A DNA stretch of 64,000 nt from a virus. Taxonomy: Duplodnaviria > Heunggongvirae > Uroviricota > Caudoviricetes. Both the position numbers and the translations under genes were made by a program. This document shows positions 38,940-42,745 of the stretch, piece by piece (within the stretch, counting starts at the first letter, position 1; each line of letters opens with the position of its first letter). Below the pieces are notes generated by a model. That model saw only the letters and a program-made list of their open reading frames with translations. It made no database searches and was not told where the DNA came from. The stretch is taken from IMG/VR virus record IMGVR_UViG_2703718819_000006. One strand, written 5' to 3'.

Positions 38940-39202
38940 TATTGGCTTTATTGTGATGTGGCATAAAAGGGGAGCAAGCTAAACGTAAAGGTGCAAACTC
39001 TCTATTTCGGTCAACGAAACACAAGGGCCATTTGGCCCTTGTCATTAACACGTTGCTTTACGGACTAGCGGATAAGCGAAGTAGATCGCCAGACCAATGA
39101 GGACGCCATCAGAAATGACAGACATCATCTTTCCCGTAAAATCCACCAACACCGCCATCACCAGAAGAGCAATGACGGTCACAAGCCGGAATCTCTCAAG
39201 CA

Positions 39203-39628
39203 TTAGAGATAAGCATCCAGTGACAACTGAAGCGCCTGTGCGATCTTTTTCAGGGCCAGCTCTTCTTGTTCGCCAATACCGTCTTGGTCGGCAATATCAA
39301 GGCACAGACACAGTACATCTACTGCATCATTAGTCCCGGCCACATCAGCCAGCTCACGTAAAGCCTGGGCATTAGCGCGGCGCGGTGAGGCTTCGTATTG
39401 AGCACGGATATTGGCACTCATTTGGGCAATCTCACCAGCAAACGGAGAAAACGCAGGCAGAGCTGCAATTGTTTTCTCAAGAATGGAAATTTCCTTTGCG
39501 TCGCATGTGCCATCGGCATAGGAGATCATGTACGCGCCCCACACGGTGGCTTCAACCGCATCTCGGTTCTCCATTTTTTTGACCTCGATAACAGCTTTAC
39601 GAGTTTTCTTTTTGAATAAACCTAACAT
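39203..39628 (-). CDS. TerB-like (tellurite-resistance TerB domain) protein
   Basis: 141 aa; paired acidic DG motifs (ISYADGTCDAKEISILEK / IADQDGIGEQEELALKKI) typical of TerB fold. Confidence 0.5.
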   Translation of the reverse strand: MLGLFKKKTRKAVIEVKKMENRDAVEATVWGAYMISYADGTCDAKEISILEKTIAALPAFSPFAGEIAQMSANIRAQYEASPRRANAQALRELADVAGTNDAVDVLCLCLDIADQDGIGEQEELALKKIAQALQLSLDAYL

Positions 39629-40158: not shown

Positions 40159-40559
40159 TCGAACTGTCCTTGTTGTTTTTCTCCTTCACTAAAGGCCGTG
40201 TACTTTTCGCTTCGCGTGAAGAACCAGAGGTAACAATCGCCCCCACGTTCGCAACAACTGACGCTTGCTTATCTAAACGTTCATTCAGCAACCGAACGGC
40301 AGTCTCTAGTTCATCAAGACGTGACAGAACACGACCGCTAAATAATTCGGCCAAAATTTGACGTAGTGAACGAGGACGTTTAGTTGCAGAAGTGAAATAG
40401 GTTTGACGTGCCATGTGGACTCCATCCAGTGTCAGAAAGAGTTGCGGCTGGCGATTGCCAGCCGCCTTTCTCGTTCCATCCTGGAACTGTGTCTTACCGA
40501 CACATTGTCATCCTGACGCCGATAAGATACATGATTTAAAATGATAGGTAAACACTTAC

Positions 40560-41153
40560 TTACTGCTTGTTGTAAACAAAACCAATATCTTTCTTGTGAG
40601 GCATATCTGCTGCGGAAAAAGCTGCGATCTTCGCGAGTCGATCACATATTTCATTTTCACGATGCCCGGCGTGACCTTTAACCCACTTCCAGCGAACATT
40701 ATGTCGACTTGCAGCCTCATCCAGACGCTTCCACAGATCAACATTCTTTACCGGTTTTTTGTCAGAAGTCACCCATCCATTGCGTTTCCACCATTTCATC
40801 CACTGTGTCATGCCGTTTTTCAGATACTGGCTATCAGAGTGCAAAATAACGTTGCATGGATATTTCAAACGCTCCAGCCCGATAAGTGCCCCCATCATCT
40901 CCATGCGGTTATTGGTGGTGCTATGAAAACCATCTGAGAACTCGCGTTCCTCACCACGATACTGGAGAACGATACCGTAACCGCCCGGGCCACCCGGATT
41001 TTTAAGGCAAGAGCCATCACTAAAGATTTTCACGGTTTTAAGCTGGGGATTGAACTCTACGACAGGCGTTGTGGGATTGGTGCGGGGGGAATTTTTGTTT
41101 TTGGCTTTTTTGCGAGTTTTTGCTTGCGATCGAGCTGGTGTCTTCGTCGTCAT
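40560..41153 (-). CDS. rnhA: ribonuclease HI with basic N-terminal extension
   Basis: Start at ATG 41153 (SD AGGAG); core [17 protein letters not shown]...TNNRMEMM...HSDSQY...[15 protein letters not shown] matches RNase HI catalytic motifs. Confidence 0.8.
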
Positions 41154-41735
41154 ATAAACTCCTGAATCAAGCGCCGCGCCGATTTTTCCTCGCGCGTGCG
41201 CACACGCGTGCGTGTTAATAATTATTAAAATAAACAAATTACTTCCCAGAACAGGTTTTTATAAACCTGAACTGAACGAACGAAGTGAGTGAAGTTCACC
41301 TCGAACGAAGTGAGAGGTTGTCTTTTCAGGTAATACTCTCCCAGGGAGGTGAGTATAAAAATCTCTCACCAACCTGGTCGTTTCATAACCTGAAAAGTTA
41401 TGGTCTAAGTCTACTGCCAGCTTAGACTTGGGAAGTTATGGATGACAGCACCCCAGAACCGAGATCTTCCCACACTTTATGAAGGGGAGTACTGGATTCA
41501 ACCTCTCGAAACACCCCAGACTCGACAATCATAAAGTGACCCTTGTCTCCGCTCACTTTGGTTCCCCCTTCCCCGACACCTAAACGGCACCAGTTCTACG
41601 CTGGTAGTGAGCTTTTTTAAACCTGACGCCAGTGACGCTTACCCCCACCCATCAGGTCGAGTCTCCAGTCTACGACTGGAAACTATCAGATCTTAGCACT
41701 TACAATTCACTTTATGAATAGTTTGTACTTATCTA

Positions 41736-41990
41736 TCATTGTGATTGATTATTTTCTCTACCATGTAGTTGAACATTCAAGGCAAACACCTCATTGATCA
41801 ACTCACCTAAAAGCTGTTCAACAAGTTCGCGATGCTCGCCAAGATGCAAGCACTTAATTGCCCATTCGTACAAGTTGAAAGCCTGCTCACGATCTTTCAT
41901 CATTTCACGAGCCTGGGCCAGAAAATCGCTCTCTACGAGCGCAACGACATTAGTCGGGTATGACATGTTGGTTTCCTTAAAGTGGTTCAT
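41736..41990 (-). CDS. hypothetical protein
   Basis: 84 aa. Confidence 0.35.
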   Translation of the reverse strand: MNHFKETNMSYPTNVVALVESDFLAQAREMMKDREQAFNLYEWAIKCLHLGEHRELVEQLLGELINEVFALNVQLHGRENNQSQ

Positions 41991-42071
41991 AAAATCGATT
42001 TTAAAGCGTCTGGGAAGGGGTTCTAGTGGATTCTGTAGTGATGTTCAGGTCTGGAGTCTCTGATACAAAAC

Positions 42072-42130
42072 AGCCTGCTTCCGTATATTAATAATTAATA
42101 TGTAGTTATTTATATATACAGAAGCAGGCT
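42072..42130. repeat. long palindrome AGCCTGCTTCCGTATAT..ATATACAGAAGCAGGCT (copy of 12043-12098)
   Basis: Seen in sequence; same arm sequence and same single C/T asymmetry. Confidence 0.7.
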
Positions 42131-42151
42131 AATTACAGACGCCAGAACAAA

Positions 42152-42745
42152 CTAAGCAACCTTCTTTGATGGTCTTTTTTTCCTGATCACATTCGCAGGA
42201 TCATACCCTCCCAGACTTTTCATGACGTCCAAAGGGATCTTGCTTATAGAGTGCCCAGCGTCCTGACAGAATCCTCGAAAAACAACGAGCATACTGCCAC
42301 CTGGGTTGATGTTTACTTCTACCTGACCCAGATTGACGTCAGGCTCGACAAACGCTACGCGGCCACCAGACAGAATAATCGTCTCATTCGCACACTCTGT
42401 TGCACGCTCATACCACTTTGTATCTAGGGATTGAGGAATTAGCATCACTGTTGTAACTCCGCGAGCCTGCTCACGTATAGCAGCATCAATCCAGGGGGAG
42501 ATTTTGGAGTAGGGTGGATTGAGGAAGGCAATTGTACCTGGCTGTCCCCATTCAGATTTCAAAGCATCACGCTCAATGCCTATGAAATTAGGCAGCTTTG
42601 CGTTGTCCTTGTTGCAGGCAACGTCAACATCAAATGTCACTCCAAGATAACGTTGAATGGCAGAAAACAGCCAATCAGGTGTTCTCCAGAGGTCACGAAG
42701 AGAGTTGTCGCGCTTTCGCTGTTTGATTTTTTCGGCTGCAATCAT
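42152..42745 (-). CDS. phage-type N6-adenine DNA methyltransferase (Dam-like)
   Basis: 197 aa; WRTPDWLF...LNPPYS motifs. Confidence 0.7.
   Translation of the reverse strand: MIAAEKIKQRKRDNSLRDLWRTPDWLFSAIQRYLGVTFDVDVACNKDNAKLPNFIGIERDALKSEWGQPGTIAFLNPPYSKISPWIDAAIREQARGVTTVMLIPQSLDTKWYERATECANETIILSGGRVAFVEPDVNLGQVEVNINPGGSMLVVFRGFCQDAGHSISKIPLDVMKSLGGYDPANVIRKKRPSKKVA

Follow-up and report, generated by a model that had tools for sequence, protein, structure and literature searches.

Half a kilobase of DNA that nearly all sequence records leave without annotation raises the question of what is encoded there. The case considered here is a gap of 582 bp (41154-41735) in a 64,000-nt stretch of DNA from a virus of the Caudoviricetes (IMG/VR record IMGVR_UViG_2703718819_000006; the whole stretch is referred to as the window). 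It is bounded by the start of an RNase H gene (41153) and by the stop of the neighbouring gene (41736), both on the minus strand. A first-pass annotation, prepared from the sequence alone, had pointed out a gene-free region here and had named a non-coding RNA, a lytic origin and a degenerate intron or homing remnant as possible explanations; the gap itself proved real. We hold it very probable that the gap is an RNA gene and, with less assurance, probable that this gene specifies an extensively folded non-coding RNA of about 0.5 kb, which is transcribed from the minus strand and made in the plasmid state. The window represents a phage-plasmid of the SSU5/pHCM2 type, as 700 bp around the gap match 12 phage and 687 PLSDB plasmid records. 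The phage matches include the Escherichia phages CMS-2020a, PhiR41_1 and Cyrano (97-99%), Salmonella phage SSU5 (86%) and Klebsiella phages (82-85%). The exception to the missing annotation is phage Cyrano, where a 44-amino-acid open reading frame (ORF) is listed as CYRAN_81. The element occurs in 232 of 5,426 complete E. coli genomes, and RefSeq annotates nothing at this place in them.

The gap contains a conserved core of 420 nt (41660-41241). Among 17 lineage representatives, identity per 20-nt segment amounts to 0.77-0.99 in the core as compared to 0.59-0.74 in flanking coding sequence. Against Klebsiella and Salmonella plasmids, identity is 88-92% for the core and 80-82% for the terminase gene of the same elements. 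Three lineages are apparent: a main clade from Escherichia, Klebsiella, Salmonella, Enterobacter, Citrobacter and Buttiauxella, an intermediate lineage termed L173 (82%), and a Cronobacter-type clade with about 68% identity over the core.

The gap folds far better than shuffled sequences (z = -5.75 for the plus and -6.4 for the minus strand), in line with the earlier description as a structured region. For 21 representatives, RNAalifold predicted 96 base pairs, 25 of which show compensatory double changes, and the energy of the alignment fold was -94.9 kcal/mol for the minus versus -66.6 kcal/mol for the plus strand. In the curated structure, standard pairs occupy 96.0% of the alignment cells with 21 sequences and 96.6% with 25 sequences, and 27 and 29 pairs, respectively, are changed on both sides. 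When the pairing partners were slid by one to three columns as a control, only 3-9 (21 sequences) or 1-6 (25 sequences) such changes were counted, and none of 500 shuffles reached the observed covariation score. The two deep clades, folded independently, yielded the same architecture, and compensatory changes also occur within clades (L156, L178, L173 and L168 versus L169). These comparisons support at least 12 predicted helices and a long-range pseudoknot. The curated pairs include 199 G.U cells and 15 A.C cells, and the RNA is therefore assigned to the minus strand, on which 96.0% of the cells are canonical, compared with 86.8% on the plus strand.

A sigma-70-type promoter precedes the core. 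The arrangement TTNNNN-17 nt-TANNNT is present in 61 of 61 distinct sequences, while the sequence of the spacer varies. The -10 hexamer reads TAAGAT, TAAAAT, TAGAAT, TACAAT or TAACAT in 60 of these variants, and 49 carry the TG of an extended -10 element at -15/-14. The distance from the promoter to helix P2 is 26-29 nt in 56 of the 61 variants and 22 and 19 nt in the remaining ones. Note that the promoter in the window scores 8/12, with the cut-off of the scan tool at 9/12. Transcription is predicted to start at about 41684 (+/- 3).

Published RNA sequencing of an E. coli LF82 lysogen bears directly on expression. There, CYRAN_81 is among the prophage genes expressed 12-fold above local background (PMC9928086). 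It reached 113 and 121 fpkm (fragments per kilobase per million) in LB, compared with about 10 for the upstream gene CYRAN_80 and about 8 for RNase H (PMC9928086, S1 Table), and its log2 values came to as much as 10.3 at 6 h in macrophages, a level like that of the putative repressor (PMC9928086). A discrete transcript spans the element in the lysogen, and its neighbours in the lytic module are near silent. Between CYRAN_81 and RNase H the signal falls from about 117 to about 8 fpkm, which fits termination at a GC-rich hairpin (hairpin B) at the end of the gap. This hairpin is probably a weak terminator, in which case the RNA would measure about 520 nt. Several main-clade lineages can form hairpin B; the Cronobacter-type clade has only the end motif together with a different hairpin. 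The motif, CGCGCGAG(G) plus an A-run, persists in the lineages examined, those lacking RNase H among them. The same LF82 table lists two further loci of phage Cyrano (OV696614) far above the prophage background, the hypothetical protein gene CYRAN_43 (40268-40822) with about 7,000 fpkm and CYRAN_40 (39144-39356) with about 150 fpkm. They are other lysogeny-expressed loci of the same phage-plasmid and were not located in this window.

Could the transcript be a messenger? The candidates would be a small protein gene of the CYRAN_81 type and a type I toxin mRNA, with which we group the remnant of a decayed intron or homing endonuclease. Messengers of the hok type have a comparable size (about 400 nt) and are highly structured, and the Cyrano ORF has been listed as a lysogeny-expressed 'moron' (PMC9928086). 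The first-pass annotation had stated that no ORF fits. This holds insofar as no ORF on either strand is intact across all 24 other sequences, but ORFs of 30-46 amino acids do exist in the gap, CYRAN_81 being one of them. The CYRAN_81 frame is broken by indels of 1-2 nt in four of 21 representatives, its start codon is absent in the Cronobacter-type clade, and the ORF is intact in 10 of 24 sequences; the best ORF (20 amino acids, GTG start) reaches 17 of 24. There is no PHROG match either, and a small coding gene was rejected on these two grounds. The intron or homing remnant was likewise discarded: models for group I and group II introns gave no score at E-values up to 10, hok/sok and other Rfam models did not score either, and no gene is split. 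We give this group of explanations next to no credence.

More generally, a cmscan search against Rfam 15 at the gathering threshold returned no match for the whole window and five related loci. The families covered include group I/II introns, RNase P, tmRNA, 6S, ROOL, GOLLD, HEARO, OLE, raiA, RNAI and hok/sok-type RNAs. When E-values up to 10 were admitted for both strands of 41000-42200, only sub-threshold chance matches of the miRNA type appeared, none of them over the core. The window contains neither a tRNA nor a tmRNA gene, and a description of this RNA was not found in the literature, queries with sequence strings included. As far as sequence comparison can tell, the RNA is previously undescribed and absent from Rfam 15. 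The conserved promoter, the covarying helices, the G.U asymmetry, the signal in the lysogen and the lack of a conserved ORF strongly support the non-coding RNA among the three initial suggestions. Its author had made that suggestion depend on a transcript, on conservation and on a covariance-model match; the first two are present, whereas a match to a known family is not.

The gene neighbourhood allows a further possibility to be judged, namely that the element is a cis-acting leader. It would then be a 5' untranslated region, or serve within the operon for processing, attenuation or antitermination, and control RNase H and the genes downstream. All genes around the gap, among them those for a Dam methylase and an epsilon-like exonuclease, are on the minus strand. 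The element sits inside a long gene run, directly upstream of a ribosome-binding site, its 3' hairpin abuts the RNase H Shine-Dalgarno sequence, and part of helix P11 resembles the RNase H ribosome-binding region. On the other hand, the downstream gene changes from lineage to lineage while the RNA stays the same. RNase H follows in 118 of 142 loci; other lineages have unrelated small ORFs or, in the Buttiauxella locus L178, a convergent helicase gene. RNase H is missing at 24 of the 142 loci, i.e., in the whole Cronobacter-type clade and at 15 main-clade loci, and the RNA is intact there. Adjacency to RNase H is frequent, not obligatory. Furthermore, a conserved promoter belongs to the element itself, whose abundance in the lysogen is about 14 times that of RNase H; with about 450 nt and at least 12 helices, it also far exceeds the size of known leaders. 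A leader function is very unlikely in our estimation.

The gene upstream is constant. It encodes a protein of 76 amino acids and precedes the element in 129 of 129 loci with enough sequence. Its product belongs to no Pfam family, matches only a PHROG group of unknown function, and its homologues (29 clusters) all come from the same phage-plasmid group. The AlphaFold model (pLDDT, the predicted local distance difference test, 81) is a three-helix bundle for which no match was found in the PDB. Some observations on the neighbours stand on their own. In the phage RNase HI (40563-41153, minus strand), the Pfam RNase_H domain (residues 40-178 of 197) is preceded by about 40 N-terminal residues rich in Lys and Arg, an extension that could be a nucleic-acid binder. 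On the K. pneumoniae plasmid pKPT877-IncFIB (L006:1300-2090), the RNase H gene is apparently cut off after about 60 nt and followed by unrelated AT-rich sequence, and the RNA with its 3' hairpin is intact despite the apparent truncation. Between the Dam methylase and 76-amino-acid genes lies a long, near-perfect AT-rich hairpin (AGCCTGCTTC...GAAGCAGGCT, 42064-42135) with sub-threshold matches to miRNA precursors in Rfam. Its probable role is that of a terminator or processing site inside the minus-strand operon.

Table 1 Predicted features of the RNA gene and its surroundings, listed in the direction of transcription.
Feature	Position	Strand	Remarks
Dam methylase gene	42152-42745	minus	
76-amino-acid gene	41736-41966	minus	upstream neighbour of the RNA; CYRAN_80 in phage Cyrano
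-35 hexamer TTCATA, sigma-70-type	41713-41718	minus	17-nt spacer to -10
Extended -10 TGcTAAGAT	41690-41698	minus	TG 41698-41697, hexamer 41695-41690
P1, 5'-terminal hairpin GUUUCCAGUC-GUA-GACUGGAGAC	41661-41683	minus	a hairpin folds here in most lineages
P2, long hairpin: P2a ACCUGAUG/CGUCAGGU, P2b GGUG/CACU	41621-41657	minus	
P3 domain, GCUCACU/AGUGAGC closing junction	41551-41612	minus	inner helices from RNAalifold
P4 (CACUUUAUGA/UCAUAAAGUG) and P5 (GAGU-CUGG/CCAG-U-ACUC)	41473-41538	minus	
Pseudoknot, 5' strand AGAGGUUG	41506-41499	minus	in the P5 loop
P6 (UGGGAAG/CUUCCCA), inner hairpin P6a (GGGUG/CAUCC) and conserved AUCUCGGUUCU	41429-41472	minus	
P7 hairpin GUCUAAGCUG-GCAG-UAG(A)CUUAGAC	41403-41427	minus	
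P8, local hairpin	41402-41384	minus	alternative to the P8'-P9 arm; one compensatory pair
P8'-P9 arm, extended hairpin of about 76 nt	41322-41397	minus	CUUUUCAGGU/ACCUGAAAAG closing CCAGG/CCUGG and GGUGAG/CUCACC
Pseudoknot, 3' strand CAACCUCU	41320-41313	minus	pairs with 41506-41499, 8 bp, long-range
Motif CUCACUUCGUUCG, two copies	41314-41302, 41289-41277	minus	exact repeat; predicted unpaired; 25 nt start to start
P10 hairpin (UGAACU 41298-41293 / AGUUCA 41273-41268)	41268-41298	minus	second motif copy in the loop
P11 hairpin CAGGUUU-AUAA-AAACCUG	41252-41269	minus	
AT-rich spacer, variable in length and sequence	41238-41216	minus	start of the 3' region (41164-41238)
GC-rich hairpin A	41215-41202	minus	
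Hairpin B, loop GGAAAAA	41201-41171	minus	tail UUGAUUC 41170-41164
RNase HI gene	40560-41153	minus	downstream neighbour of the RNA

The predicted anatomy combines helices of variable sequence with unpaired stretches that hardly vary. The P1 stem sequences are unrelated between lineages (UUUCCAGUC, CUUCCGGA, CUGGCAGA, UUUCGAC); that of the Cronobacter-type clade (GUCAUU/AAUGGC) was read from the alignment, as the scripted segment cut off its 3' arm. P2 comprises 12 pairs, five of them changed on both sides and with 99.7% of cells paired, and has a conserved, G-rich loop (GGGGUAAGCGU). Three of seven pairs in P3 are changed on both sides, and its junction holds the invariant ACCAGCG and GGGGAAGGGGGAACCAAAG. 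For P4 the figure is five of 10 pairs, some of the changes lying inside the main clade (L156, L178). In P5, CUGG/CCAG is exchanged for CCAG/CUGG, a covariation seen by eye, since the MAFFT alignment is off by one column in the Cronobacter-type clade. P6 (seven pairs, three compensatory), P6a (five pairs, one compensatory) and P7 (10 pairs, five changed on both sides) are 100% paired. Both 8-mers of the pseudoknot are invariant in 23 of 25 sequences. L173 has a compensatory exchange of G-C for U-A, and the rival local hairpin, as read from the alignment, is uncompensated there; L178 has one mismatch.

The P8'-P9 arm is the minimum-energy fold in each lineage folded alone. It is nearly all paired in the Cronobacter-type clade, with compensation within that clade, and P9 contributes two compensatory pairs. 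Because a compensatory pair also occurs in the local alternative P8, P8 and P8' may form a conformational switch. For P10, the main clade has the stem UGAACU/AGUUCA and the Cronobacter-type clade GAAACC/GGUUUC, with three of six pairs compensatory; the L173 stem reads AGAGCU/AGCUCU by eye. P11 had been described as an 18-bp perfect palindrome (CAGGTTTTTATAAACCTG, 41252-41269), but is actually a 7-bp inverted repeat, CAGGTTT/AAACCTG, around TTAT. Its stem varies by lineage (GGGGAU/ACCCU, GGGAU/UUCCU), and the alignment is poor in this part, where 62% of cells pair. The conserved UUCUGGGAAGUAA follows P11 (41239-41269 together) and marks the end of the conserved core. The supposed tandem repeats are two exact copies of the 13-mer CGAACGAAGTGAG (41277-41289 and 41302-41314), whose spacing of 25 nt from start to start shows that they are not tandem; the motif occurs nowhere else in the window. 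The GC-rich direct repeat CGCGTGCG was found twice as claimed, at 41193-41200 and 41205-41212. It is part of a 24-nt, perfectly alternating pyrimidine-purine tract (CACGCACGCGTGTGCGCACGCGCG on the minus strand, 41190-41215), which forms two GC-rich hairpins. A GC-rich composition of alternating pyrimidines and purines is that associated with Z-DNA.

Yersinia aside, almost every SSU5-like plasmid of Enterobacteriaceae carries the element. Relative to plasmids bearing the terminase gene, it was found in 310 of 342 from Klebsiella, 195 of 206 from Escherichia, 88 of 91 from Enterobacter, 49 of 49 from Salmonella, 24 of 25 from Citrobacter and 10 of 10 from Cronobacter. None of the 62 terminase-bearing Yersinia plasmids gave a match, and in Acinetobacter relatives (the first 100 kb of an SSU5-like plasmid) the element was undetectable with nhmmer and a covariance model of P4-P7. 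The same two tools revealed no copy elsewhere in the window or in the distant relative L174. Viral and metagenome contigs were also scanned for exact patterns, and genome and viral contigs with proteins as guides. Nothing outside the known phage-plasmid group turned up apart from a single unrelated phage with 27 nt in common; within the group, L173 was added as the third lineage. Two artefacts were discarded: L176 (Logan SRR8137545), an assembly of this locus with a bisulfite-like C-to-T conversion, and L177 (JGI 3300011728), in which an N-filled gap mimics a deletion of the P9 arm. In L174 (2226-2937; also L175), where the small protein is 70% identical, the slot between its gene and two RNase H-like genes holds a 712-nt region that is equally structured (z = -5.4). 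It matches nothing of the RNA described here (nhmmer, covariance model, Rfam, PLSDB) and may be a non-homologous RNA at the same locus.

The proximity of RNase H invites another explanation, an RNA-primed origin. The transcript would serve as a pre-primer, form a persistent hybrid at its 3' end (spacer and GC-rich region) and be cut by RNase H to prime DNA synthesis of the phage-plasmid. An RNA made in the plasmid state from its own constitutive promoter would suit this role, as would the immediate vicinity of RNase HI in the majority of loci, the location in a DNA-metabolism module and a near-universal presence with conservation above that of the terminase gene, as expected of a cis-essential element. 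The distance from the start to the conserved GC-rich/GAGG-A-run motif is about 500 nt, and the ColE1 transition region (ACGCGCAGAAAAAAAGG) looks similar to that motif, a similarity that serves as a lead only. RNA-based prophage origins are moreover known in mycobacteriophages (PMC7157519). Finally, the 27-nt hairpin AACAACCUCUCACUNCGUUCGAGGUUG recurs in the linker of the replication initiator of an unrelated phage, where lambda-type origins lie.

This phage of about 41 kb and 55% GC (L015, L024:6296-6330, L051, L089:7746-7780) carries a hairpin almost identical to CAACCUCUCACUNCGUUCGAGG in the linker of the gene for a 442-amino-acid replication-initiation protein, with repeated CAGTGAG motifs and an AT-rich run before the hairpin and a GC-rich palindrome, CGTGCGCGCACG, after it. 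No relative of the initiator occurs in the window, and the matches listed for it include none from an SSU5-type record. A shared initiator therefore does not account for the shared hairpin.

Several findings speak against priming. The 27-mer is a single event with a chance expectation of about 0.01-0.07, and the two phages share no proteins. The element-bearing plasmids are typed IncFIB, and a repA of Cyrano is named in the LF82 paper (PMC9928086). An antisense RNA for copy control is not evident: RNAI (RF00106) gives no match, no plus-strand promoter lies inside the core, and the sole plus-strand promoter-like site in the gap (41677-41706) is located over the variable P1/promoter region and faces away from the core. 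RNase H is not adjacent in all lineages, as described above, a point that counts against the lytic origin as well. Constraint is strongest on the folded core and its loops, whereas the 3' spacer, i.e., the priming site, varies in length and sequence, and the GC-rich hairpin is more simply explained as a terminator. An inflection of GC skew is also missing: cumulative skew falls steadily over 30-64 kb without a turn at 41 kb, although skew in phages mostly tracks the direction of transcription. Taken together, we regard an RNA-primed origin as unlikely.

The lytic origin of the first-pass annotation is not supported either; what keeps an origin a minority possibility are the features named above for the RNA-primed version. 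If the element acted at the DNA level only, as a lytic origin, a protein-binding site or a single-stranded DNA structure, the transcript would be incidental. The two 13-bp direct repeats, the AT-rich stretch, the alternating tract and the hairpin in another phage's initiator gene could be cited for it, and G.T wobble might be tolerated in single-stranded DNA as well. Origins of the iteron or lambda type have three or more initiator-binding repeats beside an AT-rich unwinding element, in or next to the initiator gene; here there are only two copies of the 13-mer, both within the RNA fold. The gap does have an AT-rich stretch, variable and about 25 nt long, but there is neither an adjacent initiator gene nor a change in skew. 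Above all, compensatory changes preserve at least 12 helices and the pseudoknot over 420 nt on one strand, the promoter is conserved exactly upstream, and the RNA is made. We consider a purely DNA-level function highly improbable.

We therefore return to the structured non-coding RNA and to what it might do. Transcription from the promoter at 41718-41690 would yield an RNA that extends from about 41684 to the GC-rich hairpin at 41201-41171, just before the RNase H ribosome-binding site. Its core folds into P1, the hairpins and multi-helix domains P2-P11 and the 8-bp pseudoknot, and our best guess for the product is a stable tertiary-folded RNA or RNA-protein particle that acts in trans in the lysogenic (plasmid) state. 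A trans-acting fold is favoured because unpaired stretches are often invariant, the loop motif UCACUUCGUUC is displayed twice and no complementary target was found in the window, where the best complementarity to the remaining sequence is 12-14 nt, i.e., at chance level. Antisense regulation appears improbable. We see about an even chance that the RNA is a trans-acting structural RNA or ribonucleoprotein (RNP). As a guess, it could take part in replication control of the phage-plasmid, in the lytic switch or in the exclusion of other elements, but each specific biological role has, by itself, a low probability.

A number of points weigh against this interpretation. Covariation comes nearly entirely from two deep clades and a few intermediate lineages, so that the cell counts greatly overstate the number of independent events. 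A single-stranded DNA structure of the same strand would produce the wobble asymmetry as well. Support for the pseudoknot consists of one compensatory change next to one uncompensated mismatch. Both transcript ends are deduced from sequence and not mapped, the terminator scan flags no canonical intrinsic terminator, and hairpin B fails the U-tract rule. The LF82 paper (PMC9928086) is silent on the strand of the reads and on strand-specific counting. The idea of a trans-acting RNP rests on negative evidence, as the lack of an antisense target refers to 64 of about 110 kb, and no partner protein was identified, the always-adjacent 76-amino-acid protein being a three-helix bundle without a structural match.

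If the element were a new class of large tertiary-folded RNA with an active role, belonging to the core of enterobacterial SSU5-like phage-plasmids and expressed in lysogeny, which we put forward as a doubtful but not negligible prospect, it would be either an RNA-primed origin or a ribozyme, an RNP or a self-assembling 'ornate' RNA. An origin of this kind would be the first in an enterobacterial phage-plasmid, with the element's own RNase HI as the processing enzyme; otherwise, the RNA might govern replication of the plasmid-prophage, the lytic switch or the exclusion of competitors. Few bacterial RNAs are large, structured and endowed with dozens of covarying pairs, and new classes have tended to expose new biochemistry. 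The element is also common: the 687 PLSDB plasmids include those of clinical Klebsiella, Enterobacter and Salmonella Typhi (pHCM2), and the phage-plasmid group is known to carry resistance genes (PMC9600943). It is tractable in E. coli, with LF82/Cyrano and SSU5 in culture, and offers a handle on how SSU5-like phage-plasmids manage their plasmid state, a barely studied matter. One phage record mis-annotates the element as a hypothetical protein and 'moron'. Annotation pipelines and typing schemes for phage-plasmids should count this conserved 0.5 kb as a gene.

How does the element compare with known systems? The immunity RNAs of P1/P7 (c4), P4 (CI) and N15 (CB) are likewise prophage RNAs made in lysogeny from their own promoters. 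They measure less than about 100 nt and base-pair with sites in their own operon. The RNA described here is about five times larger and has no significant complementarity elsewhere in the window. With the RNA II pre-primer of ColE1/pMB1 it shares constitutive synthesis, a folded structure, a length of about 500 nt, G-rich segments, a GC-rich/A-run end and the link to RNase H. Unlike RNA II, it has no antisense partner or promoter of the RNA I type, it resides on elements with IncFIB typing and a repA in Cyrano, and RNase H is dispensable for keeping it.

A further comparison is with the RNA-based origins of cluster A mycobacteriophages (Wetzel et al. 2020, PMC7157519), where a non-coding RNA is also made from a plasmid-prophage in lysogeny. 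In these extrachromosomal phages the RNA adjoins parABS, repA is absent and the region is required for replication (PMC7157519). By contrast, IncFIB typing and the Cyrano repA apply here, parABS is not among the neighbours, and 18 locus tags separate CYRAN_81 from CYRAN_99, which is annotated as a septum-site-determining protein and which we take for the partition gene.

The remaining comparison is with the ornate RNAs ROOL, GOLLD, OLE and raiA. Multimer formation is known for ROOL and GOLLD (bioRxiv 10.1101/2024.12.08.627333). Our element differs from the four classes in that their Rfam models give no score at E-values up to 10, no tRNA genes lie nearby, the distribution is confined to one phage-plasmid group of Enterobacteriaceae, and expression is lysogenic from a sigma-70 promoter. 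It resembles them in a length of more than 400 nt, in many covarying helices, conserved unpaired nucleotides and a pseudoknot, and in being carried by temperate phages among neighbours that give no function away.

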